From a virus (Duplodnaviria; Heunggongvirae; Uroviricota; Caudoviricetes), in the IMG/VR virus record IMGVR_UViG_2547132271_000006: 12,376 nucleotides of DNA. One strand, given 5' to 3'. Both the position numbers and the translations under genes were made by a program. Below are positions 36-11,334 of the stretch, piece by piece; positions within the stretch are counted from its first letter, which is position 1; each line of letters starts with the position of its first letter. The notes beneath the pieces were generated by a model. The model ran no database searches. It worked only from the letters and a program-made list of their open reading frames with translations, and was not told the origin of the DNA.

Positions 36-68
36 AGCCCGATGATAAATCCATCGGGCTATTTTTTT
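36..68 (+). terminator. Rho-independent terminator of the upstream plus-strand gene, convergent with narP
   Basis: 9-bp stem AGCCCGATG (36-44) / CATCGGGCT (52-60), 7-nt loop, followed by T7 tract 62-68; the narP stop codon lies inside the T tract. Confidence 0.6.
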
Positions 69-714
69 ATTGTGTCCCGCGTTGTTGCAGGAACAGAATG
101 GTGGCCGCCACGCGTGAGCGGACATTGAGTTTACGCAGCAGATTGCGAATGTGCACTTTTACCGTCTGCTCAGAAATATTCAACACCGAGGCAATTTGCT
201 TATTCGACAGCCCTTGCGCCAGTTCGTGCAGAACATCCAGCTCACGCTCCGTCAGCACGCTGAAGGGATCTTCTTCCGCACCGAACATTTCACGCTCGCG
301 TAAGTACTGATTGACGCGTTCGCTAAAGACTTTGCTGCCTTTTGCTCCGGCGCGAATTGCTTCCAGTAATACTTCCGGGTCGCTGTCTTTTAGCAGATAG
401 CCGTCTGCGCCTGCGTCTATCAGTGCAAAGATATCGCTGGAGGCATCTGATACGGTCAGGATAATAATTTGCGCGGTAACGCCATCCCTGCGCAAGGCAT
501 TGAGGGTATCCAGGCCACTCATACCTTTCATATTGAGATCCAGCAAGATAACGTCGATATCCAGTCGATTAGCCAGATCGATAGCACTAGCGCCGTCGCC
601 TGCTTCGGCGACCACTTCAAAACCAGGATCAAGCTCCAGTAACTGACGAACACCGCGTCGCATAAGTGGATGATCATCCACAATCATCACCTGAAAAGGC
701 GTTGCTTCAGGCAT
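67..714 (-). CDS. narP: Nitrate/nitrite response regulator NarP (receiver domain + LuxR-type HTH), 215 aa
   Basis: Track ORF 67..744; N-terminal receiver motifs (VMIVDDHPLMRRG, ILLDLNMKGMSG), C-terminal LuxR/FixJ HTH (LTERELDVLHELAQGLSNKQIASVLNISEQTVKVHIRN); start placed at ATG 714 (MPEATPFQ...) which is preceded by AGGAG at 7-nt spacing, whereas the track start at 744 has no RBS. Confidence 0.9.
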   Translation of the reverse strand: MPEATPFQVMIVDDHPLMRRGVRQLLELDPGFEVVAEAGDGASAIDLANRLDIDVILLDLNMKGMSGLDTLNALRRDGVTAQIIILTVSDASSDIFALIDAGADGYLLKDSDPEVLLEAIRAGAKGSKVFSERVNQYLREREMFGAEEDPFSVLTERELDVLHELAQGLSNKQIASVLNISEQTVKVHIRNLLRKLNVRSRVAATILFLQQRGTQ

Positions 715-851
715 AGTAGTCTCCTGAGGTTTTATTAGAATCATTATGTTTGAGCGTAGCGTTGGTAACGCTACCAGGCGCGTGAATGTTACCCCATTTT
801 ATGTATGGGCATGTAGTAAAACTGCAAGTGAGGGTAGCAAGACAATGCTAT

Positions 852-897: not shown

Positions 898-917
898 GGC
901 ACGAGAAGATATGAATT
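898..917. repeat. Degenerate direct repeat of the tRNA-Pro 3' end (distal att remnant of the integrative element)
   Basis: GGCACGAGAAGATATGAATT matches tRNA segment 9428-9447 GGCACGAGAGGATTTGAACC at 17/20 positions, same orientation, directly abutting the proL terminator. Confidence 0.55.
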
Positions 918-970
918 AATGATGTAATCTATTGAATTATAATTAATATTAGTTTCACTAGCCTTGTTTT

Positions 971-993
971 TAGTCCCAAACCTAGTCCCAAAA
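971..993. repeat. Two direct copies of TAGTCCCAAA near the distal element end (putative protein-binding / arm-type sites)
   Basis: TAGTCCCAAA at 971-980 and TAGTCCCAAAA at 983-993; the same motif occurs as a 4-copy dyad upstream of int (9246-9305). Confidence 0.45.
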
Positions 994-1093
994 TGAAAAG
1001 TCACAGCGTTTTTAGAGCAAGATAGAAATACCGATACGGGGATATTTAGAATGCCTCTTGGGCTTGCCACTGTCGGGCTTGCGATGGTTTCCA

Positions 1094-1136
1094 GTGGAAA
1101 CTTTTTGGTAAGTGGAAGCCTCGCTGGAAACTTTTT
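1094..1136. repeat. Direct repeat TGGAAACTTTTT x2, each embedded in a short palindrome (TTTCCAGTGGAAA, CTGGAAACTTTTTTCCAG)
   Basis: Read directly at 1094-1105 and 1125-1136. Confidence 0.4.
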
Positions 1137-1172
1137 TCCAGCCCCTCAAAGGCGCATGGTGACTGGTTTCAT

Positions 1173-1300
1173 ATGCTACGCAGTACTCATACTTTCCGTT
1201 TAGTTTTTGCGTACCTGCGCACCATGCTAAAGCCCCGTCATGGCCTTAGTTTGCCTGTTTGTAACCTTGACATTTCTATACATCGAAGTGCGCAAACACA
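1173..1300. repeat. Copy A of an ~130-bp imperfect direct repeat (non-coding)
   Basis: Aligns with 1556-1690 over its length (shared blocks ACGCAGTA, GTTTTGCGTACCTGCG, ACCATGC, AAAGCC, ATTTCTATA, GTGCGCAAA); indels break any common reading frame. Confidence 0.5.
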
Positions 1301-1360
1301 TCAGGATTTCCCCGGCTCACCTTCAGCAATGGCAAGGTTTTATGCGTGTTCCGGGCTTCG

Positions 1361-1407
1361 TCCGTCCATTTTTTTGGACGGAATTTTGGACGAATTTTTT
1401 GGACGGA
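1361..1407. repeat. CCGTCCA-T7-TGGACGG inverted repeat followed by two further direct TTTTGGACG copies
   Basis: Read directly: tccgtccatttttttggacggaattttggacgaattttttggacgg. Confidence 0.4.
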
Positions 1408-1555
1408 TGAAACGGGGCTAAGGCACTGATATAGCTACGTGATGGGCTAAAGAAATCTTCTGGCAGGTGCGCAAAAACCCTGGCATTTCTAAGCATCATA
1501 CTGCGCAAAAAACCACCAATCCGGTATGCCAGTACGCATCAGATAAGGCTTTGAG

Positions 1556-1690
1556 GCGGTACGCAGTATGCATTATGTTCGTTTCGTTTTGCGTACCTGC
1601 GTACCATGCGCAAAGCCGCTGATACCTGATATTCAGCCCTCTGAAACCTTAATATTTCTATATATCAACGTGCGCAAAAACCTTAACAAA
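1556..1690. repeat. Copy B of the ~130-bp imperfect direct repeat (contains tandem TGCGTACC TGCGTACC)
   Basis: See copy A; also carries GTGCGCAAAAACC, a motif recurring at 1289, 1469 and 1502. Confidence 0.5.
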
Positions 1691-1821
1691 ACTTAACATC
1701 CGGTGCGTACCTTTTTGCGCAGTCCGGCTGCTGGTGGATGACTGGTTTTGACTATCTCCAGAAACAACCAAGGCCGGATAAACCAGCCCTGACTACTGTA
1801 TAAAAACTGTATGCCCGTTGT

Positions 1822-1872
1822 TTGCATGGGGTAGTTTTAAAAAAACTTGCCATCTGATTGCATGGGGTAGTT
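1822..1872. repeat. Perfect 15-bp direct repeat TTGCATGGGGTAGTT x2
   Basis: Copies at 1822-1836 and 1858-1872, separated by an A-rich spacer. Confidence 0.45.
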
Positions 1873-1912
1873 CTCGCAAATACCCCCTTATGCCGTTTTC
1901 AGTGCGGGAGCG

Positions 1913-2083
1913 TCATACAGTCCAGGGTTCAGCCCGGGAAGAAGCGGCGCTTTTTGATGCCGCCCGACGGTCTGGCAGCGGGCGCGAACGCTGCTTTGCA
2001 CGAAATAGCTTTTCCGCACGCGCCATTGAACATCCCTTCTTTTCGCTGATTTTAGTGATTTCCATGTAATCGAAAAAACGCAT
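1913..2083 (-). CDS. Hypothetical small basic protein (56 aa, MRFFDYMEITKISEKKGCSMARAEKLFRAKQRSRPLPDRRAASKSAASSRAEPWTV); not in the supplied ORF track (<60 aa)
   Basis: ATG at 2083 preceded by AGGAAGG with a 6-nt spacer (strong RBS); in-frame TGA at 1913-1915; lies immediately downstream of the iteron array. Confidence 0.3.
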   Translation of the reverse strand: MRFFDYMEITKISEKKGCSMARAEKLFRAKQRSRPLPDRRAASKSAASSRAEPWTV

Positions 2084-2207
2084 TGTTTACCTTCCTGTTG
2101 TTCTGGTTGTTTGCCGGATGCCTGATTTTACCAGATACCCGCCAGGCGAGCTTTCCGGCTTTCAAACCTGAAATTCAGGAAAAATTATCTCTATATATAC
2201 AAAAGGG

Positions 2208-2496
2208 TGTTGTCCCTGTTGTCCCGGTTGGCCCAAAAGATGTAACGAACTGATTTTATTGAAATTGATTTTTAATTGTGGGACAACATGCCAGCATTGT
2301 GGGACAACATGCCCTGTTTCTGTGTTGTCCCACAATACTGGCTGGTGAATGTTGTCCCAAAACTCCCTGACGTTGTCCCAAAATTGCCGCATGTTGTCCC
2401 AGAAACACGCTGTGTTGTCCCATAATTACCTGATGATATCTCTAAATAACAGTATGTTACTCAGAAAATCTCTTCTCTGGGACAACCGGGACAACA
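2208..2496. repeat. Iteron array: 12 copies of 9-mer TGTTGTCCC / GGGACAACA (putative replication origin of the element)
   Basis: Direct copies at 2208, 2217, 2226 (degenerate), 2323, 2350, 2371 (CGTTGTCCC), 2392, 2413; inverted copies at 2280, 2301, 2479, 2488; exact 21-bp phasing at 2350/2371/2392/2413 and 2280/2301; located just 3' of the replication gene. Confidence 0.65.
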
Positions 2497-2517
2497 TCTT
2501 TTACGCGCACGTATGAA

Positions 2518-4659
2518 TTATCCGGCTTCTTCTTCCTCCTGTTCAGGTGCGAAAAGCAGGATATATGCACGTTGCCGGGCGTTATTCTGATGTTTCAGAC
2601 GCGGTGTTCTGCCCTGCCAGCCTCTGCCACTGGTGGGTTTCTTAAGCATCCCGGCATCATGCAGTACCTGCGCCACCGCGTCCTTGTTAAAGCCTCTGGC
2701 AACGTGTTCTTTAAACGGTGCCGGAAGCACGTAAAACAACATCGGGTCATCATACCGTTCGCCCTTGTCCCGGTAGCCCATCAGCTCACTAATGGGAAAA
2801 TCTCGCGGATCATAATCCACGGGTGCAAATTTGCTCATGCCCCAGGCGTTAAGAAATGCCACTGCCTGTTCTGCAATCTGCTGGTGTTCTTTGTTCCCGG
2901 TGCCAAACTCTTTCACCCAGGCATTAAAGCTGCGCTGTATCGCATCCCGGCACCCCTGCGCATCCCATCCGGTGATATGGCCTGACAGCACCAGCGCCGC
3001 TTCCATGATGGCGAATCGCTCCCCGACGCGGTGGACCTGCTCGCCGTAGTTGTCCGGGATAAGTCCGCGCCAGCGTTCCCTTGCGGCTTCTGTGGCCTCC
3101 CTCGCTGCCTGCTGGTGGTCTGCCAGCCAGAGCACCCACTCACGCCCTGCGGTGCCATGATGCGCCATACAGGCCGCTCTGAGCGCATCAGCATGAGCTT
3201 TACCGGACGGCATCCCGTGAAATTCCGTGGCCTTCTCCAGTGGCACATTAAGCAGGCGCACCAGTTGCCCCGCTTTGGGCTTCATGCCTGCGGCTGCAAG
3301 AAAGGTTTCTATGTCCATTTCTCCGGTACTGATGGCGACAGTTCGCCAGCGTTTAAGCTCCCGGTTACCGCCTTCCTTTGCGCCCTGTAGTTTCCCCACA
3401 CCGTTAAACAGCGTATAGGCAGACGTTGCCACGGCGCGGGCATCACTGCCCTGACCAACCTCATCCAGTGGCATCAGGCCGTCATTGTGCGCCTGTGCTT
3501 CGTTAGCAATACCCAGCGCAGTACCGTACCAGGTGAGGCGCAGTAAATCCGGGTTACCGTACAGACTGCTGGCGATGTTTGCCGTGGTGGTTTTCCCGGC
3601 GCTGGACTGCTGGAAGAAATGGACGCCGAAGCCATCCGCACCCACCAGCCCGACCAGTGGCGCGGCAAGTGCTGCCGCCACGCCCAGCATCATGGAAGGA
3701 TTACCCGCCACCAGCGCGGCGACGTTCTCCCGCCAGCTCTGCGCCGTTCCTGCACAGGTGTAACCGGAAGCCGTCGCGCTGTGACCGTAAAACAGGACCT
3801 TCCGGCCCGCCTCGCCGATGATTTCCCCGTCCGGCATGATGTATGCGCCGTGCTGCCATCCGGTCAGGCTGGTGATGTGCCAGAGTTCCCCTGTACCACT
3901 GCGCAACAGGTGATCGGCAAGGATGGCGCGAAAGTTATTTTTAGCCGTGACAGAAAGCCCACCAGCACGTAACCGCGACCAGCCTTCACGCTCGCCAGTA
4001 TCACGCATGGGTATCGCTTCGGTGTGTGCTGTACGCGCGCCTGCGGGCTTCCAGCGCAGAACAAGAAACCGCTCGGACTCATCCGCGCCAATGCCCACCA
4101 CCTCAAGCGGATCACACAACCACTGACCGGGGCGGGTAACTTCCCCGGTCTGCTTATCAATCTTTGGCGTTACCCAGTACAGACCGTCAGGGCGGGCCTC
4201 CACACAGGGGGCCAGCTCATCCACCGGCGCAGGTTTGCCCTCTGCCCGTAGTACCTCTTCCACCAGGCTTTCTTCCCCGCGTTCGTGCTGTTCGCGTATC
4301 CGGTTCAGGTAGTCGCGCCAGTCTTCCGGGTGCTGGTCAGGTATCCCCCTGTATAACTTCGCTTCCTGTACGCCCGCCAGCGCCAGCTTTTCAGCAATGG
4401 CATTAATCTGAATGGGCTTAATATCTCCGGCATGATAGAGGCGGGCGTACTTACACCCGTTATCGATAATGCGCAGGTTCGCCAGGTCTGCCAGTTGCTT
4501 TGGCCCCAGCCAGACAGGCGGCGTTTTATCTGCGGCAATTTTTAATCCCCAGTCCTCTTCCCATGTCTTAGCGTGAGCGAAGGCATCAGCCCCGGCAAAG
4601 ATAACCACCTCAACATGTTTATCTTTCGGTTGATGCTTAAGGTTCGGTGCGTTCTTCAT
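2518..4659 (-). CDS. Replication initiation protein, primase/helicase-like P-loop NTPase (P4 alpha-type / DUF927-like), 713 aa
   Basis: Track ORF; Walker A-like FQQSSAGKTTT, Walker B-like MPLDEVGQGS, acidic C-terminal tail; GAGG RBS 7 nt upstream of ATG; start overlaps upstream ORF stop (ATGA). Confidence 0.7.
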   Translation of the reverse strand: MKNAPNLKHQPKDKHVEVVIFAGADAFAHAKTWEEDWGLKIAADKTPPVWLGPKQLADLANLRIIDNGCKYARLYHAGDIKPIQINAIAEKLALAGVQEAKLYRGIPDQHPEDWRDYLNRIREQHERGEESLVEEVLRAEGKPAPVDELAPCVEARPDGLYWVTPKIDKQTGEVTRPGQWLCDPLEVVGIGADESERFLVLRWKPAGARTAHTEAIPMRDTGEREGWSRLRAGGLSVTAKNNFRAILADHLLRSGTGELWHITSLTGWQHGAYIMPDGEIIGEAGRKVLFYGHSATASGYTCAGTAQSWRENVAALVAGNPSMMLGVAAALAAPLVGLVGADGFGVHFFQQSSAGKTTTANIASSLYGNPDLLRLTWYGTALGIANEAQAHNDGLMPLDEVGQGSDARAVATSAYTLFNGVGKLQGAKEGGNRELKRWRTVAISTGEMDIETFLAAAGMKPKAGQLVRLLNVPLEKATEFHGMPSGKAHADALRAACMAHHGTAGREWVLWLADHQQAAREATEAARERWRGLIPDNYGEQVHRVGERFAIMEAALVLSGHITGWDAQGCRDAIQRSFNAWVKEFGTGNKEHQQIAEQAVAFLNAWGMSKFAPVDYDPRDFPISELMGYRDKGERYDDPMLFYVLPAPFKEHVARGFNKDAVAQVLHDAGMLKKPTSGRGWQGRTPRLKHQNNARQRAYILLFAPEQEEEEAG

Positions 4660-4898
4660 TCCACCGCCTCCCTGCGGGTGGCAGCCAGTGCCACGGCATC
4701 GCGGGTAAACTCCCGGTGAAAGCGATCCACCGGATATACGCAGGGGTGAGAGTAGCCATCACGGATATATGTCACGCGGTTGAACTGATTCCCGGTAATC
4801 ACTACCGCACACCCGGATTTGTCGCGCCATTTATCGCCAGGGCGAATTTCGGGTAAAGCCTGCCCGCTGGCAGGAATGCCAGTTATTTTCTTGGCCAT
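4656..4898 (-). CDS. Hypothetical protein, 80 aa, translationally coupled to the primase gene
   Basis: Track ORF; stop TGA overlaps primase ATG; only a weak RBS. Confidence 0.5.
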   Translation of the reverse strand: MAKKITGIPASGQALPEIRPGDKWRDKSGCAVVITGNQFNRVTYIRDGYSHPCVYPVDRFHREFTRDAVALAATRREAVE

Positions 4899-4910
4899 TA
4901 TTTTTTCGCC

Positions 4911-5108
4911 TTATGCTGCTGGTGGTGTAACGGTAAATCCGGCTATTTTTGCCGCTTCCAGAAAACCGTCCAGGTTACTGACAAACTCATTCTTCTGTAG
5001 CGTATAGCCGCCTGTGGCAGTGCCTTTTTCCACGCTAACCAGGACAAGCCCGGTGAAGTCCGGTCGCGCCGGAATGGTAACCGTGAAGGTCAGGGAGTGA
5101 TTACGCAT
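4911..5108 (-). CDS. Hypothetical protein, 65 aa (MRNHSLTFTVTIPARPDFTG...)
   Basis: Internal ATG of track ORF 4911..5222, chosen because it is preceded by GGAGG at 6-nt spacing and overlaps the upstream stop codon by 8 nt. Confidence 0.5.
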   Translation of the reverse strand: MRNHSLTFTVTIPARPDFTGLVLVSVEKGTATGGYTLQKNEFVSNLDGFLEAAKIAGFTVTPPAA

Positions 5109-5643
5109 GGTCTGCCTCCACATACGCGACACCCGCCACATCAAGCGCCTGTTTAAAACGGCAAAGCATTTCACGGCGTTCGCGGTACAGGGCCAGCACG
5201 AAGGGATCGAGTGTGGCTTCAATTTCGGCAGGATAACGACGGACGAAAGGCAGAAGGACGACGCCCTGACAGCGGTGTGGCGTGGTGGATTTCACCTGGT
5301 CAGCCAGCATATTCACCAGGTCATGTAACAGCCCGGTAAGCGGCTGGATCATGTCACGGGGCAATGTATCAGCCACCAGCGCCTTTGCCAGCGTGAGGCA
5401 GTATTCCAGCGTCAGGCTTTCATCAGGCCAGTACTCTGACAGATCGGATGCGGTATTGTCCGGCAGGGTAAGCACCGGATCCGCATGGTAGGCCGCTGTC
5501 AGTGCCTCCAGTGATGTGACAAGGTATTTGCACATCGCCCGGTGTTCCGTGCTGCTGCGGTATTCCATCAGCCCGCACACCAGCGCGGCGCACTCACCCG
5601 CCAGATGAAACAGCTCAACTCCTGCGGGGATCGGCTTATTCAT
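5101..5643 (-). CDS. Hypothetical protein, 180 aa (MNKPIPAGVELFHLAGECAALVCGLMEY...)
   Basis: C-terminal portion of track ORF 5101..6273; ATG at 5643 overlaps the stop of the upstream 65-aa gene; protein-like composition unlike the sequence upstream in that frame. Confidence 0.55.
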   Translation of the reverse strand: MNKPIPAGVELFHLAGECAALVCGLMEYRSSTEHRAMCKYLVTSLEALTAAYHADPVLTLPDNTASDLSEYWPDESLTLEYCLTLAKALVADTLPRDMIQPLTGLLHDLVNMLADQVKSTTPHRCQGVVLLPFVRRYPAEIEATLDPFVLALYRERREMLCRFKQALDVAGVAYVEADHA

Positions 5644-5833
5644 GATGCGCCCCCGTAGCGGGCAGGCGACCCGCAAAGAAGCAGACATTTTCCCGTGCAA
5701 GCTGGCGACGGGCTTCACGTTCGCTGGTGGCGGTAATGTGATGGATTGTTGCGGTAATGGTCGGGCAGTCGCGGCGAACGGCAGCGATAAGCCAGACGAA
5801 TTGCGGGCAGAACGGGGTGAGGGTAGTAGCCAT
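5636..5833 (-). CDS. Hypothetical small Cys/His-containing protein, 65 aa (MATTLTPFCPQFVWLIAAVRRDCPTITATIHHITATSEREARRQLARENVCFFAGRLPATGAHHE)
   Basis: Track ORF; strong RBS AAGGAGG 7 nt upstream of ATG; stop overlaps next gene's start. Confidence 0.6.
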   Translation of the reverse strand: MATTLTPFCPQFVWLIAAVRRDCPTITATIHHITATSEREARRQLARENVCFFAGRLPATGAHHE

Positions 5834-5843
5834 AAGGCAGCCT

Positions 5844-5930
5844 CCTTTGTGTTTAAGGAGTCACCGCCTGAGTTCTCACGCTCATAAGGGGCGGTGACGC
5901 TGGCGGGGGTGAGAAAACCGGACACAAAGG
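5844..5930 (-). promoter_or_regulatory. Structured mRNA leader: nested 9-bp inverted repeats able to sequester the RBS of the 65-aa gene
   Basis: Plus-strand CCTTTGTGT (5844-5852) vs ACACAAAGG (5922-5930); inner GTCACCGCC (5860-5868) vs GGCGGTGAC (5890-5898); the outer arm overlaps the AAGGAGG Shine-Dalgarno. Confidence 0.4.
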
Positions 5931-6004
5931 GAACCGGCCAGCCCGAAGGCTGCCCCACCAGCGCCACCATTGATACGGTCTGTTTTGCGGGTATGCGCTG
6001 GCAC

Positions 6005-6037
6005 GACACAAAAAAAGACGCTTTCGGCGTCTGTGTC
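6005..6037 (-). terminator. Intrinsic terminator inside the same-strand gene cluster, between the alpA-side genes and the replication operon
   Basis: Minus strand reads GACACAGACGCCGAAAGCGTCTTTTTTTGTGTC: 6-bp stem AGACGC/GCGTCT, loop CGAAA, T7 tail. Confidence 0.55.
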
Positions 6038-6039
6038 GC

Positions 6040-6273
6040 CTTTGTGTTAAACGGGTTCTCACGCCCGGCTGTGGATTTTGCCACAACGGGAATACTGTAA
6101 ATCCTGTTCAGGGAGGCAGGCAAGCGGTTTTTATTTTTTCCGGTGTCAGGTTTTGACAGGTTGTTGCCAGCCAGGATAACGAAAATATCGCGCTTGTCTG
6201 CGGTTAAAATACGCTTCTGGCTGGTGGCAGGGTGAGCGATGCCCTGACCGTGAAGGTCATTAATTGATTTCAT
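6040..6273 (-). CDS. ORF of unclear status (MKSINDLHGQGIAHPATSQKRILTADKRDIFVILAGNNLSKPDTG...): plausible coding start, 3' end cannot be called
   Basis: ATG at 6273 with AGGA upstream and E. coli-like codon choice in the first ~70 codons, but the frame stays open through the terminator hairpin and on to 5101; possibly a frameshifted pseudogene or an untranslated leader. Confidence 0.25.
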
Positions 6274-6287
6274 TATTTCAGTTCCTG

Positions 6288-6719
6288 TCAGGCAGCGTTC
6301 TGGTTATCCGGGTACATCATGAGGATGCTTTCGATGGTCTCCGGGGAAAGGCTCCCGTAGCCACCAGTACTGGCGCACTGATTGACCAGTTTAATGACCT
6401 TAAGCACATCCGCACGGCAGGCAAAGCGGTAGCGAAGATGCGCCCCTATGCCATCGGCATTGGCTTCTTCTGAACGCGCCAGGCAGATATCAAGGCGGCG
6501 CTCCAGTTCACTGGCGTAATTGCGGCCTGATGAAAGATGGCAGTGGCGCAGAATATCGTTTTCAGTCCAGCCACCAGCACCAGTGCAAAGCATATAAACG
6601 CGGGCGCGGTGCTTCTTCGGTGTGCGTCTCGCTTGTGTGCGGCTGGTGGTGGGGATAACATCAGACGGGCGAATATCTGTGTTAGCCGCCTGCTGTTCGG
6701 GGCGGTTTTCTTTTTTCAT
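6288..6719 (-). CDS. Hypothetical protein, 143 aa, basic low-complexity N-terminus; translationally coupled to alpA
   Basis: Track ORF; GAGG RBS; ATG overlaps the alpA stop (ATGA). Confidence 0.65.
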   Translation of the reverse strand: MKKENRPEQQAANTDIRPSDVIPTTSRTQARRTPKKHRARVYMLCTGAGGWTENDILRHCHLSSGRNYASELERRLDICLARSEEANADGIGAHLRYRFACRADVLKVIKLVNQCASTGGYGSLSPETIESILMMYPDNQNAA

Positions 6720-6928
6720 TGCGCCACCTCGCCGCGTGATTCAAATACACGATCATTTATCCATTTATTAACTTCGTCTTCAAACCAACCAACACGGCGT
6801 AGGCCAATGCGAAATCCTCGCGGAAATTCGCCAGCGTTAATCATCTCCTGAAATGCGCTATCTGATTTAATGCGTAAAATCATTTTTACTTCTTTTTTGA
6901 GAAGGATCTTTCTTTCTTCTGATGTCAT
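6716..6928 (-). CDS. alpA: AlpA-family small DNA-binding regulator (phage/island transcriptional regulator, excisionase-like), 70 aa
   Basis: Pattern LLKKEVKMILRIKSDSAFQEMINAGEFPRGFRIGLRRVGWFEDEVNKWI fits the AlpA/MerR-like HTH family; the track start at 6946 is a TTG codon, the first ATG is at 6928. Confidence 0.7.
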   Translation of the reverse strand: MTSEERKILLKKEVKMILRIKSDSAFQEMINAGEFPRGFRIGLRRVGWFEDEVNKWINDRVFESRGEVAQ

Positions 6929-6989
6929 TTGGTTAATCTCATTCAATACCGATTAATTCCGGCGGTGTAGGAATACTGGCATGATGAGA

Positions 6990-7055
6990 TAGGGTGAGGG
7001 CAACACTATTTAGGGTGAGGGTAGGTTACCGTGAGGGTCCGGGGTGGTTACCCTC
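6990..7055. repeat. AGGGTGAGGG direct repeats plus GAGGGT...ACCCTC inverted repeat in the intergenic region upstream of alpA (candidate operator)
   Basis: AGGGTGAGGG at 6991-7000 and 7012-7021, GTGAGGG at 7031-7037, inverted ACCCTC at 7050-7055, GGTTACC at 7024-7030 and 7046-7052. Confidence 0.4.
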
Positions 7056-7065
7056 TCGGTAGATG

Positions 7066-7794
7066 TTAAGCCACTTTTGATGGGGTGCGATCGATTGGGC
7101 AAGCGATTTTTTCGATAGCTTTGGCTGTGGATTCAACAAATCCGTAACTGGTTTTAAGCTCTGTAATTATGGCCTGCTGGTTAACTCTGGTGCCATTATT
7201 GTTAGGGTCATACTCTGCCCATTCACAATTCCTTATCCTGATAGCCTGATACAGAGGGTCTCTTTCTACGCCTCCGATAAACTTACCCAAGTGAAGAGGA
7301 TACGATTTTTTTAAAACCTCAATATCTCTTTCTAGTGCGGTAATTTTATTCTTAAGTTCGGATATCACTTGTGATTCTTGATTTGTACGTGATGGCGGCT
7401 GTAATCCCACTTCGTAGGGGGGGGTAATTATAATGGCATTATATTCTATGAACTCATTTTCAACCCAAGGCCAGATGTCCTTTGCCAGAAAGTTAGCATC
7501 AACTATATGTGTGTCGATATTAATATCGTCATTTTTAACTAAGCTTAAGGCATCAACTGGGAGATTCCATGAAGGGTCAGTATATGTGTAGGCTTTCAGT
7601 GGGATAACTTCTTTCAATTTAATAGCTTGACATATAATTTCTTTGAATGTTGAAGCTTTCTCATCGCTAATGTAGCCACTGACAATATTTGGATCAAGAG
7701 TATCGTACTCACCGGATAAGCCTGCCATAACTAAAGCTGCTTGTTCTAATGTCACAATTCTGAGTCGTTTAATATGGAAAGGTAAATCAATCAT
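7066..7794 (-). CDS. Hypothetical cargo protein, 242 aa, markedly AT-rich; no recognisable motif; central predicted coiled-coil segment
   Basis: Track ORF 7066..7797 (track start is GTG; ATG at 7794 has a GAGGTG RBS); GC content clearly below the flanking element genes; sits between int and alpA. Confidence 0.7.
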   Translation of the reverse strand: MIDLPFHIKRLRIVTLEQAALVMAGLSGEYDTLDPNIVSGYISDEKASTFKEIICQAIKLKEVIPLKAYTYTDPSWNLPVDALSLVKNDDINIDTHIVDANFLAKDIWPWVENEFIEYNAIIITPPYEVGLQPPSRTNQESQVISELKNKITALERDIEVLKKSYPLHLGKFIGGVERDPLYQAIRIRNCEWAEYDPNNNGTRVNQQAIITELKTSYGFVESTAKAIEKIACPIDRTPSKVA

Positions 7795-7974
7795 CACGCC
7801 ACCTCACGCCCTCTATCATGGAGGCCGCGCCAACCCGCAGAGGTGTACGGGAATTCGGGAGCTACCCTAGACGCGGCTTATTCTGTTACCGTCGGCTTTC
7901 TTCGGTTTTGCCCATGATAGATCGTTTTCTGAACGCTTGCATTGCAAGACTGTGTGAATAATCAGCTTGTGTTT

Positions 7975-9216
7975 TTATACAGCTCTAATTCCTCTCATTC
8001 CTGTTGCTAGTGTCACTCCCGTGGATGCGGTTTCCACAAATTCCCCCCACCAGCGCATCAACACAATACGCTTTTCAAGATAGTTACTCCGGTTATATGC
8101 CCTGCGAACTTCATTGGTGTCTACATGTGCCAGCGCCGCTTCTATCACATCAGGATCGAAGCCTTCTTCGTTGGCTGCGGTGCTGAATATGGCCCGTAAC
8201 CCGTGGGAAACAAGGACGCCTTGATACCCCATACGCCTTAACGCAGCATTGGCGCTTTGGCTGCTCATAGGTAATGTCGGTTTTTTAAAGCTGGGGAACA
8301 CATATTCACGATGGGCGCTAATAGGCTTCATTGCTTCCAGCACGGCTAATGCCTGCTCACATAAGGGAATGATGTGATCCCGGCGCATCTTCATGCGACC
8401 TGCTGGAATCGTCCAGGTTTTATCCGTCAGGTTGATTTCTTCCCATCGTGTTTCTGCTGCCTCTACAGGTCGCGTGACGGTTAAAAGCTGCCATTCAATG
8501 AGTAATCGCGTTTGCCGCTCTATGCTGGCAATGGATAGTGTCTGCATGAGGTCGGGTAACTGCTCCGGCCTGATGGTTGGCATATGTTTTTTAACTGGGG
8601 TAGGGAAGGCCTTTCTGACATTTGAGGCGGTATTGATCTCTATCAGTCCACTATTGGCGGCAAAATCCATCACTTCATTGATGCGCTGTAGAACGCGTTT
8701 TAGTGTTTCAAGATTGCCCCGCGCTTTAATCGGCTCCAGAACGGTGACGAACTTACGGGCCGTCAGTTCGTTAATGGGAGTATTTCCAATGTCAGGGAAT
8801 ACGTACTTTTCCAGCGAACGCCATATGTCTTTGATGGTATTGGCAGCAAGGTTCTGGCTTTTTTTCATCTCGTACCAGTCAGCGGCGACCTTTTTGAATG
8901 TGTTCCCCCGGCGCAGTTCCTCTGCTTCACGTTTTTGTTGCTGGTGGTGTTGTGGATCAATATCTCGGGCTAAAAGTGATTTAGCTTTCTCTCTACGTTC
9001 TCTGGCATCCGCTAAAGAAAGATCAGGATAATTACCAAGAGTCCATGTAGTACGCTTGCCAGTATCAGGCTTGTAGTAACGAAGCTGCCATGTCTTCACC
9101 CCCGAAGGTTTTACGATCAGAATTAATCCGCCACCATCGGTAAGGGTGGTTTCTTTATCGTGAGCTTTGGCATTTTTTATTTGAGTGGCGGTGAGTGGGG
9201 CGGTTTTGATGGCCAT
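7975..9216 (-). CDS. int: P4-type tyrosine integrase (site-specific recombinase), 413 aa
   Basis: N-terminal arm-binding-type domain (LTDGGGLILIVKPSGVKTWQLRY), C-terminal catalytic region with HGLRAIFST (H-x-x-R) and catalytic Tyr context (RRAYNRSNYLEKR); adjacent to tRNA 3' end. Confidence 0.9.
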   Translation of the reverse strand: MAIKTAPLTATQIKNAKAHDKETTLTDGGGLILIVKPSGVKTWQLRYYKPDTGKRTTWTLGNYPDLSLADARERREKAKSLLARDIDPQHHQQQKREAEELRRGNTFKKVAADWYEMKKSQNLAANTIKDIWRSLEKYVFPDIGNTPINELTARKFVTVLEPIKARGNLETLKRVLQRINEVMDFAANSGLIEINTASNVRKAFPTPVKKHMPTIRPEQLPDLMQTLSIASIERQTRLLIEWQLLTVTRPVEAAETRWEEINLTDKTWTIPAGRMKMRRDHIIPLCEQALAVLEAMKPISAHREYVFPSFKKPTLPMSSQSANAALRRMGYQGVLVSHGLRAIFSTAANEEGFDPDVIEAALAHVDTNEVRRAYNRSNYLEKRIVLMRWWGEFVETASTGVTLATGMRGIRAV

Positions 9217-9230
9217 AGGGCTAGCTCGCT

Positions 9231-9305
9231 TGGGACTTGGTAATGTTTTGGGACTAGGATTTTTAGGACTAGCCGCTATCTAGTCCCAAATTTAGTCCCA
9301 AAAAT
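9231..9305. repeat. Dyad of four TAGTCCCAAA-type sites upstream of int (two inverted, two direct); candidate operator / integrase arm sites
   Basis: TGGGACTA at 9249-9256, TAGGACTA at 9265-9272, TAGTCCCAAA at 9281-9290, TAGTCCCAAAAA at 9294-9305, plus GGGACT at 9232-9237. Confidence 0.5.
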
Positions 9306-9422
9306 TCCGGCTGTAAACGGTTAATACCGATATCTACAGGCATTAAAAAACCCGCAAACTCAGAGAGAATGCGGGTTCTTAAGGGGTTTCCGTATGTATC
9401 CGATACATCCAGAATAATGATT

Positions 9423-9499
9423 TGGTCGGCACGAGAGGATTTGAACCTCCGACCCCCGACACCCCATGACGGTGCGCTACCAGGCTGCGCTACGTGCCG
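9423..9499 (-). tRNA. proL: tRNA-Pro (anticodon GGG), integration target of the element
   Basis: Reverse complement reads CGGCACGTAGCGCAGCCTGGTAGCGCACCGTCATGGGGTGTCGGGGGTCGGAGGTTCAAATCCTCTCGTGCCGACCA, a 77-nt cloverleaf-compatible sequence with encoded CCA. Confidence 0.9.
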
Positions 9500-9513
9500 A
9501 CTCGTGGCTGCTT

Positions 9514-9541
9514 ATACTACCGTTTTCCACAACGATTGCAA
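9514..9541 (-). promoter_or_regulatory. Candidate sigma70 promoter of proL
   Basis: Minus-strand TTGCAA (9536-9541), 16-nt spacer, TAGTAT (9514-9519), about 14 nt upstream of the mature tRNA 5' end. Confidence 0.45.
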
Positions 9542-9573
9542 GTAAGATATTTTGCTAACTGATTTATAATTAA

Positions 9574-11334
9574 TCAGTTAGCGATGAAACGCTTCTCGTC
9601 TGTCAGCACTTGCAATAACAAACTTAACTGTGGTTTTTCGTCTTTCACTCTTTCGCCACGTAAGTTGTAAGTGCGGTATTTACCGTTATTGTTCAATACC
9701 AGCGTCATTTTCGGGGTGGTAATTGCCAGCGTATCGTTATCCGCAGCTGTAACCCAGTAATGACGGCGCTCAGGGTTGAACAAATCCTGACCTTGCGAAT
9801 ATTCGCTCGCCGGTGTGCTGACGTGTAGCAGACGTTGCATCAGCGTGGTCATCAGATCGGTATGGTCGGTCAGGGTATTAATTCGCTGTGCCGGTGTGCC
9901 TGGCCAGTGAATCACTAACGGCACCTGAAGATGACCGTGGGACCAGTCAAAGGTTTCTTCCTCTTCGCTCAGCGGAATACCCCGACCGGCAGTAATAATC
10001 ACCACCGTATTGTCCAGCTTGCCGGACGCTTTCAGCGCATCAAGCACGCGGTTAATCTGGTCATCGACATTACCTGCCGCGCGGCTATATTTCCGTGTAA
10101 ATGCTTGCTGGTTGCTGTCGTCAATGTTGGTGCCATTGAAAGATACCCATGAGAACCAGCGATTATCTTCTTGCGCGTAGCGGCTCAGCCAGTTGATCCA
10201 CTGTGTGGCTGTCTGCTCATCGGATTGCGTGCGAACGCTCGGCATTGAGAAGTCTGACAACAATGCCTGACGATACAACGGGCTGGTAAAGCCATCGGAT
10301 GAGAATAATCCCAGTTGATAGCCTTGCTGGTTAAGCGCGGTAATTAATGCCGCAGGCGTACGGGTCGACAGAATGCCGTCCATATAACTTGGCGATATGC
10401 CATAGAACAGGCCAAAGATGCCGTTGTCTGTCGTGTTGCCGGAACTCATATGGCGCGTGAACGAAATATTTTGCTCAGCAAAACCGGCCAGCGCAGGCAT
10501 CTGCTTCTCAAAGCGTGAGTAGTTCAGGCCATCGACAGTAATCAGCAAGACGTTTTGCCCGGTGCCCATATCGCGGTAGCGCAGCTCGCTTAACGGATAC
10601 TGTACGGAAACGGCATCTGGATTGCCTTGCTCAATAAGACGACGTTGATACTCTTGCGCATCAAGCAGACCATGCTTCTCAAGAAAACGTCGCGCCGTCA
10701 TTGGATACGAAAGCGGCAGGTTGGCGCGCTGCATGGTGATTGGGCGATAGAAGTTAGCATCGGCCCAGATATACACCACATGCGAGGCGATAAAGGCGAT
10801 GAATAAGAATGCGGCCAGCGGACGGGCGAAGCGCCGACGACGTGTCAGGCTGCGCAGCTTTTGCCAGCTCCACGTCGCAAACACCAGTTCAAGCAATAAA
10901 ATAACCGGCACGCTGATGAACATCAGCTGCCAGTCGCGCGCCATCTCATTTTCGTCCGGGTTGATAACCAGCTGCCAGACGATGGGATTAAGATGGAGAT
11001 GGAAACGGGTAAAGACTTCGCTATCGATCAGTAATAGCGTCATTCCCGCCGTTGCCAGAATGACGGACAAAAACCTCATCAGCCTCTGGGAGCCGACAAT
11101 AAAGGTCAGCGGGAAGAGGATCAGCAAATAGGTGGCGAACACCAGGAAGCTGAAATGACCGATAATGCTTACGTAGGAATAAATACGACCCGCAAGCGTT
11201 GTCGGCCAGTCGGCGATAAACAGGTAACGGCTGCCAATGACGAGCGAAAGCAGAATATTGAACAGTGCAAACCAGTGCCCCCAACTGACCATCTGGGAGA
11301 CTTTTTCACGGTAGCGCTGACGATGAGTTACCAT
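9574..11334 (-). CDS. yejM: Inner-membrane protein YejM/PbgA (LapC), sulfatase-like periplasmic domain, 586 aa
   Basis: Track ORF; N-terminal multi-pass hydrophobic region followed by a soluble domain; length and sequence as expected for enterobacterial YejM; synteny with yejL/yejK/proL. Confidence 0.9.
   Translation of the reverse strand: MVTHRQRYREKVSQMVSWGHWFALFNILLSLVIGSRYLFIADWPTTLAGRIYSYVSIIGHFSFLVFATYLLILFPLTFIVGSQRLMRFLSVILATAGMTLLLIDSEVFTRFHLHLNPIVWQLVINPDENEMARDWQLMFISVPVILLLELVFATWSWQKLRSLTRRRRFARPLAAFLFIAFIASHVVYIWADANFYRPITMQRANLPLSYPMTARRFLEKHGLLDAQEYQRRLIEQGNPDAVSVQYPLSELRYRDMGTGQNVLLITVDGLNYSRFEKQMPALAGFAEQNISFTRHMSSGNTTDNGIFGLFYGISPSYMDGILSTRTPAALITALNQQGYQLGLFSSDGFTSPLYRQALLSDFSMPSVRTQSDEQTATQWINWLSRYAQEDNRWFSWVSFNGTNIDDSNQQAFTRKYSRAAGNVDDQINRVLDALKASGKLDNTVVIITAGRGIPLSEEEETFDWSHGHLQVPLVIHWPGTPAQRINTLTDHTDLMTTLMQRLLHVSTPASEYSQGQDLFNPERRHYWVTAADNDTLAITTPKMTLVLNNNGKYRTYNLRGERVKDEKPQLSLLLQVLTDEKRFIAN

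Follow-up and report, generated by a model that had tools for sequence, protein, structure and literature searches.

In this study, we analysed a 12,376-nucleotide stretch of DNA (the window) from IMG/VR virus record IMGVR_UViG_2547132271_000006 (Caudoviricetes). It contains an integrated island of about 8.5 kb at positions 898–9445, located in the tRNA-Pro gene proL between narP and yejM, which resembles phage-inducible chromosomal islands (PICIs) and P4, that is, small phage satellites. Two families of short repeats in this island share a GTCCCA(AA) core, and we concluded that they very probably belong to two unrelated protein–DNA systems. In this reading, the TAGTCCCAAA copies are arm-type sites of the integrase (Int), the TTGTCCCA copies are iterons of the replication protein (Rep), and the common core is a coincidence of lineage and not a shared operator. 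Positions, repeat structure, domain content and comparative assortment were observed directly, and from these we infer which protein binds which site and that the int promoter is repressed. A preliminary description of this DNA had proposed that one DNA-binding protein serves the attachment (att) sites, int expression and replication; this is not supported, as arm and iteron words assort independently in related islands.

Two repeat families with a common core

The features on which the argument depends are as follows.

971–992, plus strand: distal arm, a direct pair of TAGTCCCAAA (971–980 and 983–992), 12 bp from start to start and 55 bp from the far att core
9281–9302, plus strand: int-proximal arm, a direct pair of TAGTCCCAAA (9281–9290 and 9293–9302), overlapping the predicted int promoter in its spacer and −10
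9229–9271, minus strand: int-proximal arm, inverted copies, with TAGTCCCAAA at 9247–9256, TAGTCCTAAA at 9262–9271 (one mismatch) and a degenerate AAGTCCCAAG at 9229–9238, between the predicted promoter and the int ATG
2208–2496: replication origin with 12 TTGTCCCA iterons, on the plus strand at 2210, 2219, 2228, 2325, 2352, 2373, 2394 and 2415, and on the minus strand at 2279, 2300, 2478 and 2487
9428–9445: int-proximal att core, GGCACGAGAGGATTTGAA, within the 3′ end of tRNA-Pro
898–915: att core at the far (narP-side) junction, GGCACGAGAAGATATGAA, identical to the int-proximal core at 16 of 18 positions; the match is at +8307 from the int start
7975–9216, minus strand: int, encoding a 413-residue tyrosine integrase (Pfam Arm-DNA-bind_3 at residues 8–95, E 9e-26; Phage_int_M; Phage_integrase)
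2518–4659, minus strand: rep, encoding a 713-residue DUF927 initiator-helicase (Pfam DUF927, E 2.6e-48; PDB 8TCH, ‘Pathogenicity island protein’, E 1.9e-14)

Exact or one-mismatch TAGTCCCAAA matches were found where the preliminary description had placed a four-site dyad (9246–9305) and a direct pair (971–993). The core that it saw as common to the int-upstream dyad, the far-end pair and the origin iterons was also confirmed, with the 8-mer GTCCCAAA present at all three places. Seven matches of this 8-mer were counted (plus strand at 973, 985, 2354, 2375, 9283 and 9295; minus strand at 9247) against 0.41 expected, and none of 200 shuffles reached seven. The excess is the sum of two separate, internally repeated families, the arm word TAGTCCCAAA and the iteron TTGTCCCA, and excess over chance alone does not show linkage between them. 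The iterons described at 2350 and 2371 indeed read TGTTGTCCCAAAA and CGTTGTCCCAAAA, and they are two of the 12.

The likeness between the families is closer than had been stated: T-A-GTCCCA in the arms and T-T-GTCCCA in the iterons differ at one base of eight, and iterons 2352 and 2373 match the arm word at nine of ten bases. The discriminating base is position 2, A in the arm word and T in the iteron, which is invariant within each family, and A is found in every arm word of the Enterobacterales clade; with this base exchanged, TAGTCCCAAA becomes TTGTCCCAAA. Spacing also separates the families, being 12 bp between arm sites and 9 or 21 bp between iterons. The three bases after TTGTCCCA vary (CAA, AAA, GAA, TAA or none), and AAA occurs only in iterons 2352 and 2373.

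Independent assortment of arm and iteron words

Assortment was compared among the window island and islands at the related loci L001 (Escherichia coli 042), L003, L005 (Erwinia psidii), L010, L011, L013, L014, L016, L169 and L021 (island A). No single word is kept at att, the int promoter (Pint) and the origin (ori) across these elements; arm and iteron words vary independently. The arm words are distributed as follows.

TAGTCCCAAA: window island, L003, L004, L005, L010, L169
TAGTCCTAAA: L013, L014
TATGCCTAAA: L016
TATAGCTAAA: L006, L008, L009, L011
TATAACTAAA: L001, L012, L015, L017

The iteron words of the related loci are given below.

L005: CTTRTCCCA
L001: CTTGTCCCA(AAAT), also written GTCCCAAAA and CTTGTCCCAAAA, and with the form CCCAAAAT
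L002: TGTTGTCTCA
L003: nGTTCA
L010 and L169: GTCGGTTCA
L013: TCTCTACCT
L014: TTGGTTCA
L085: GCGGGTTA

Arms of the TAGTCCCAAA type occur with three other iteron words, nGTTCA (L003), GTCGGTTCA (L010 and L169) and CTTATCCCA (in L005, CTTRTCCCA). Similarly, L013 (TCTCTACCT) and L014 (TTGGTTCA) have one arm word and different iterons. In the other direction, iterons of the TCCCA family stand beside different arm words in the window island and L005 on the one hand and in 042 on the other, where GTCCCAAAA/CTTGTCCCAAAA iterons accompany TATAACTAAA arms, and GTCGGTTCA iterons occur with two arm words, TAGTCCCAAA in L010 and TATAACTA in island A of L021. The iteron form CCCAAAAT, which produces the match to the 8-mer, also occurs in 042 beside TATAACTAAA arm sites; therefore, the AAA-extended form is a feature of the iteron family and not of the integrase. 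Iterons and arms have not drifted together in L005: most of its iterons now read TTATCCCA, and its arms still read TAGTCCCA.

Arm words and the integrase

The TAGTCCCAAA sites flank the att core on both sides, at 126–200 bp from the tRNA-side core and 55–77 bp from the far core, and the arm word is unrelated to the core GGCACGAGA. On the tRNA side, two direct and two to three inverted copies are placed between a hairpin at 9349–9377 and the int start; the third inverted copy reads TAGTCCCAAG in the Citrobacter relative L003. The N-terminal domain of Int, besides its Arm-DNA-bind_3 match, matches the N-terminal domain structures 3JU0 (E 3e-19) and 3JTZ in the PDB. The TAGTCCCAAA copies are most likely arm-type sites of the heterobivalent tyrosine integrase of the island, because they lie on both flanks of the core, Int carries Arm-DNA-bind_3 and the word covaries with this domain. 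The alternative offered in the preliminary description, functionally separate integrase arm sites, draws its support from the same three observations. In the excised circle, attP would span about 310 bp with the core in the middle, two direct and two to three inverted copies on the int side and two direct copies on the other, and the N-terminal Arm-DNA-bind_3 domain of Int would bind the TAGTCCCAAA copies to form the intasome. A consensus scan for integration host factor gave one-mismatch sites at 925–937 and 9314–9326, plausible core-to-arm positions, but the window total was 12 against 10.8 by chance and the sites were not counted as evidence.

Relatives of Int were gathered from other species and from E. 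coli, giving a covariation sample of about 16 full-length integrases and five to seven arm words. In most Enterobacterales relatives examined, the order upstream of int was the tRNA end, the hairpin, the CCGTTTACAGCCGGAA context (−35 TTTACA), two direct sites 12 bp apart, a spacer of about 10 bp, two inverted sites and the int ATG. Wherever both could be located (L003, L005, L010 and L001), the far-end direct pair lies about 55–80 bp inside the far core, and it carries the arm word of its own lineage; L009 also has the pair, without a located core copy. Across the five Enterobacterales arm words, TA at positions 1–2, C at position 6 and AAA at positions 8–10 are constant.

Across these relatives, the arm word changes together with the arm-binding domain at the N terminus of Int, as natural domain swaps show. 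The Int proteins of the window island and L006 are 94% identical over residues 96–413 and 51% over residues 1–85, and their arm words differ. Similarly, Int of L010 is 98% identical to those of L012 and L015 in the catalytic part and 61–62% in the N-terminal domain, and again the arm words differ. At Int residues of about 40–50 (window numbering) there is a conserved strand of the form W-x-x-[R/S/N]-Y-Y, and one arm-site position is G where this strand has R, C where it has S and T where it has N (loci L003–L017 and L001). As a residue–base contact, this correspondence is suggestive, not proof. The two arm-word bases that come next go with another difference in this domain, AC with K-T-W and TA with K-I-W, and the Vibrio relative L018 departs from the residue–base rule.

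The predicted int promoter

A promoter-like site for int is located at 9289–9317 on the minus strand, with −35 TTTACA at 9317–9312, a 17-nt spacer and −10 TAAATT at 9294–9289. It is the only promoter-like site upstream of int and matches the consensus at nine of 12 positions, and its −35 context CCGTTTACAGCCGGAA is kept, with minor variants, in most relatives. The −10 (TAnnTT or TAnnnT) joins the constant TA at the end of one arm site, across a spacer of 2 nt, to the constant TT with which the next begins. The int gene is oriented away from the tRNA gene. The arm sites overlap the predicted promoter between the core and the int start, with the inverted copies in the part of the leader that would be transcribed first.

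Occupancy by Int should block the predicted promoter, because the arm sites cover the −10 and the early transcribed region. Int bound to the int-side copies would cover the −10 and the first transcribed bases, and int would be shut off by its own product (negative autoregulation). Such repression has parallels: attL overlaps Pint for IntS of KplE1, with autoregulation that was predicted to be general for integrase genes with a promoter in attL beside a tRNA gene (PMC2951348), and Int of P4 and IntI of pathogenicity island PAI I-536 repress their own promoters (PMC7286903). The link to int expression made in the preliminary description is thus plausible as far as the position of the sites goes, but the regulator would be Int itself and not a shared protein.

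Alternative explanations

Several points weigh against two unrelated systems. The likeness within the element is strong, at seven of eight bases and nine of ten for two iterons, and by our own estimate with equal base frequencies it has a chance of about 0.2% for one pre-specified word pair, a figure qualified by the selection of the island because of this match and by the many int/rep combinations that exist. L005, the closest relative with the same Rep lineage, also pairs TAGTCCCAAA arms with TCCCA-type iterons, which places the coincidence in at least two islands; the window island and L005 look like members of a single lineage, with identities of 88% in Int and 76% in Rep (over the two stretches compared). 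Covariation was seen in a small sample and is in part confounded with phylogeny, two arm words are mixed at one locus in L007, L008 and L001, the int promoter has just nine of 12 consensus bases, and all protein–site pairs proposed for the island are predicted from sequence.

Recognition of GTCCCAAA by a single protein in all three places, int promoter, far end and origin, would couple excision, int expression and replication. Such a shared operator could explain the 8-mer at all three places, far above chance in the window, the difference of one base in eight between arm and iteron words and the similar pairing in L005. However, it is extremely improbable, given that the words assort independently (TAGTCCCAAA arms with nGTTCA or GTCGGTTCA; GTCCCAAAA iterons of 042 with TATAACTAAA arms; GTCGGTTCA with two arm words), that the AAA extension is found in just two of 12 iterons, that arm and iteron spacings differ, that the discriminating base is fixed within each family and that the TTATCCCA iterons of L005 have not drifted together with its TAGTCCCA arms. 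A lineage-specific cross-talk, in which the systems are separate in general but Int weakly binds iterons 2352 and 2373 or Rep binds the arms, with some coupling between the excised state and replication, is very improbable. The two iterons that match the arm word at nine of ten bases and the pairing kept in L005 would fit it, whereas position 2 is A in every Enterobacterales-clade arm word and T in every iteron, the CCCAAAAT iterons of 042 occur without matching arms and so mark the AAA extension as a trait of the iteron family, and the 21-bp spacing of iterons 2352 and 2373 does not fit the 12-bp arm pairs. Still less probable is that the words of the window island and the E. psidii island L005 have converged to within one base with real cross-recognition, by the Int N-terminal domain on the two CCCAAAA iterons or by Rep on the att arms; if this were true, a satellite island would have a physical link between its excision state and its replication.

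The TAGTCCCAAA sites might also be bound not by the integrase but by AlpA, as excisionase (recombination directionality factor, RDF) or transcriptional activator. An alpA gene is present in the island, proteins of the AlpA/Vis/TorI type bind repeated attL sites near int promoters (PMC2951348), and control of int expression in a P4-like element, as well as PICI induction, has been ascribed to AlpA (PMC6092414). Nevertheless, AlpA remains similar where the arm word changes, and it was rejected as the reader of these sites: the 042 homologue is 63% identical to that of the window, and the segment GFRIGLRR(V/I)GW is common to the window island, L003, L010 and 042. It is the Int N-terminal domain that changes with the arm word. 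Moreover, the TAGTCCCAAA sites are on both arms, as arm-type sites are, whereas RDF sites are usually on one arm only (lambda, P4 and KplE1). We consider recognition by AlpA very improbable as well, and the integrase remains the most likely reader of the arm word.

Origin iterons and replicase

The iteron copies span 2210–2494, eight on the plus strand and four on the minus strand with spacings of 9 and 21 bp, and they flank AT-rich stretches at about 2236–2276 and 2425–2475, directly downstream of rep (rep end at 2518). In PICI origins, two iteron sets flank AT-rich DNA directly after rep (PMC6092414), and in the origins of Staphylococcus aureus pathogenicity islands (SaPIs) the C-terminal winged-helix domain of Rep reads the iterons (PMC9371898). 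The repeats of the window match both kinds of origin in their position after rep, two orientations and AT-rich centre. The DUF927 (SaPI-Rep-like) initiator-helicase would bind the TTGTCCCA iterons through its C-terminal winged-helix part and melt the AT-rich centre of the origin.

DUF927 was found in all five comparator replicases tested (L001, L002, L003, L005 and L010), and the replicase of L085 is annotated as DUF927. Over the last 140 residues, Rep proteins of TCCCA users are 67–76% identical to each other and 45–57% to others; only six proteins were compared, and L002 and L003 share 69% yet differ in their iterons.

A conserved origin module, (T)ATATATACAAAA followed by at least three tandem iterons, was observed in the window (2190–2235), L002 (8440–8480), L085 (8290–8370) and L001 (7560–7612), and it recurs with differing iteron words (TGTTGTCCC, TGTTGTCTC, GCGGGTTA and CCCGTCCCA). 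In the 042 island, the iterons fall into two clusters (7560–7710 and 9860–10000) separated by about 2.2 kb, with ssb, proQ-like and perC-like genes between them. Its far cluster has the module of TATATATACAAAA plus three tandem iterons, which in the window adjoins the rest of the origin (2190–2235), and the split clusters are reminiscent of the ori and crr of P4. The second cluster of 042, near the far end, prompted us to consider the distal pair of the window as a crr-like second Rep site, and this was rejected because the distal pair is the local arm word, and not the iteron word, in every relative.

Island boundaries and gene content

The limits of the island are the two att core copies, and every island gene is on the minus strand. 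The further features are listed below.

67–744, minus strand: narP, chromosomal flank
860–890: native proL terminator hairpin, beyond the far core copy
9349–9377, minus strand: GC-rich hairpin with a T run and a 13-nt loop, read by eye
9423–9499, minus strand: tRNA-Pro(GGG), chromosomal flank, followed by yejM and yejL
6716–6946, minus strand: alpA-like small helix-turn-helix gene, candidate excisionase or activator (Pfam Phage_AlpA, E 1.8e-8)
Between int and alpA in the gene list, minus strand: open reading frame (ORF) of 243 residues
Minus strand: region with an Ash-family match, also with C4 and isrK RNA genes
Minus strand: DUF4222 gene

The att core repeat is an imperfect repeat of 18 nt that copies the 3′ part of the tRNA, and TCTCGTGCC-like core copies are present at both island ends in the window island, L003, L005, L010 and L001. 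The hairpin at 9349–9377 would terminate the restored tRNA-Pro and insulate the int promoter, and most relatives have an equivalent hairpin; the terminator scan did not pick it up, for which the 13-nt loop is held responsible. The native proL terminator remains at the far junction beside the displaced core copy, and the restored tRNA 3′ end is followed directly by a hairpin that the island brings with it; both recur in relatives.

In E. coli 042, an island occupies the same proL site, surrounded by a matching order of flanking genes. It is a direct relative of the window island, and we take it, as an unconfirmed identity, to be the EcCI042 of PMC6092414. No complete E. coli genome had a place covering at least 80% of the island. 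On the Escherichia sp. contig L004, Int is 99% identical over residues 1–375, where the contig ends.

With int, alpA, rep and ori in one direction, a specific att site, and phage structural and lysis genes absent, the island has the gene content of the EcCI type (PMC6092414). A Pfam search of the window proteins recognised no terS, capsid or rpp-like gene. Matches at the Rfam gathering level, all on the minus strand, were C4 antisense RNA (5887–5974), isrK (6011–6087) and the int-alpA RNA motif (7810–7877), and the island seems to carry an RNA immunity region like those of P4 and P1. The C4 and isrK matches fall within a mechanically called ORF of 390 residues (5101–6273), which is probably not one real protein because these RNAs lie inside it and its only Pfam match is Phage_ASH (residues 59–149).

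The distal arm pair and the origin are separated by about 1.2 kb (region 1000–2200), in which no convincing ORF and many internal repeats were observed: a unit of about 120 nt occurs twice (1177–1300 and 1560–1681), TTTTGGACG three times at 1370–1408 and TGCATGGGGTAGTT twice, at 1824 and 1860, with GGAAAC/GTTTCC palindromes at 1086–1135. It matched nothing in Rfam or, by blastn, in E. coli genomes, phages and plasmids, and it is missing from related islands. It could hold small RNA genes, a packaging site or decayed cargo.

Other loci

In L021 (Pectobacterium polonicum), a complete island at 1400–10010 (AGTTATA arms, an 868-residue primase-Rep and GTCGGTTCA iterons) is followed by an N-terminally truncated second integrase gene at 10211–11242, of the L010 type and without its own arm region, which looks like a decayed tandem insertion at proL. 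This locus was considered as an exception, with an L010-like Int N-terminal domain beside AGTTATA sites, and was rejected because the truncated int remnant abuts the far end of the complete neighbouring island with its AGTTATA arms. The capsid-encoding PICI of L085 (E. coli EC20017429; 3680–3750 and 14270–14420) lies at cspD/clpS and has a different integrase. Its logic is the same in other words, with ATTAACTACACC twice and repeats of the CGAACAA type at the two island ends, and with rep followed by GCGGGTTA iterons.

When contigs from metagenomes and viruses were scanned for GGGACTANNTTTGGGACTA, the paired word, 96 loci were found, only five of which encode an Int relative, and L169 and L173 merely repeat the L010 lineage. 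The remaining loci were not used for the argument; many of them are tandem arrays of 12-nt units in unrelated settings, or may match the 17-base pattern by chance. Among environmental and viral contigs, TTTGGGACTA arrays with 12-nt spacing and no relative of the window integrase in the stretch were observed in L096, L102, L130, L137, L150, L170–L172, L175, L176, L178 and L181, and also in L116, L135, L145, L174 and L179; one group of these contigs is near-identical, with GGTTTGGGAGTGGTTTGGGAGTGGTCCCAAG...TTTGGGACTA three times. Such arrays could serve unrelated elements as arm sites or operators, or they could be repeats within coding sequence.

Comparison with known systems

For satellite phage P4, Pierson and Kahn in 1987 and Piazzolla et al. 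in 2006 reportedly described the attP/Int system and the repression of Pint by Int and Vis, of which PMC7286903 gives a summary. The window island and P4 have in common a P4-family tyrosine integrase gene beside a tRNA gene and transcribed away from it, repeated words on both sides of the core and an int promoter (predicted in the island) in the att region, which in P4 is repressed by Int. In contrast, P4 uses tRNA-Leu and not the tRNA-Pro gene proL, has another arm word and encodes the alpha protein in place of a DUF927 Rep. In KplE1 with IntS and TorI, arm-type sites overlap the −10 of the integrase promoter (PMC2951348), as is predicted for the window island; however, KplE1 is a prophage in argW with mapped TorI RDF sites, whereas the window island has inverted as well as direct copies. 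At the arm-type sites P1, P2 and P′1–3 of lambda (PMC4880445, PMC9791396), the N-terminal domain of Int reads words that are unrelated to the core and stand on the two arms in mixed orientation, the same heterobivalent logic as proposed here, but the arm-binding family is another one (here Pfam Arm-DNA-bind_3, PF13356) and lambda int is not transcribed from attL.

Gram-negative PICIs such as EcCICFT073 and EcCI042 (PMC6092414) show the same unidirectional order of int, alpA, (pri-)rep and ori without structural genes, and the same two iteron sets flanking AT-rich DNA after rep, although they are typically 12–15 kb in contrast to about 8.5 kb here. Unlike the Rep proteins of L002, L003 and L010, the window Rep has no primase part with Zn-ribbon and Toprim. 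SaPIs have a self-loading initiator-helicase, to which the window Rep corresponds as a homologue of 8TCH, and short iterons just downstream of rep around an AT-rich centre, read by the C-terminal winged helix (PMC9371898); the window iterons are longer (8–10 nt against 5–6) and the sequence relationship is distant. Each part is of a known kind: arm sites of a P4-family integrase, a probably autoregulated int promoter within the att region, an EcCI-type PICI backbone and a Rep–iteron origin of the SaPI/PICI type, and there is no sign of a new mechanism.

Biological meaning

As a regulatory discovery, these results carry little weight, since textbook-like integrase arm sites and a probably autoregulated int promoter stand beside a standard PICI-type iteron origin. 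They are a caution that an 8-mer common to different classes of site can be a coincidence, and comparison with relatives that reshuffle their modules settles the question quickly. The proL islands are natural swaps of Arm-DNA-bind_3 with matching changes of the arm word (TAGTCCCAAA, TAGTCCTAAA, TATGCCTAAA, TATAGCTAAA and TATAACTAAA), which is a useful data set and not a surprising one. Furthermore, the candidate correspondence between R, S or N in the arm-binding domain and G, C or T in the arm site could help to decode or re-engineer the arm-site specificity of P4-family integrases.

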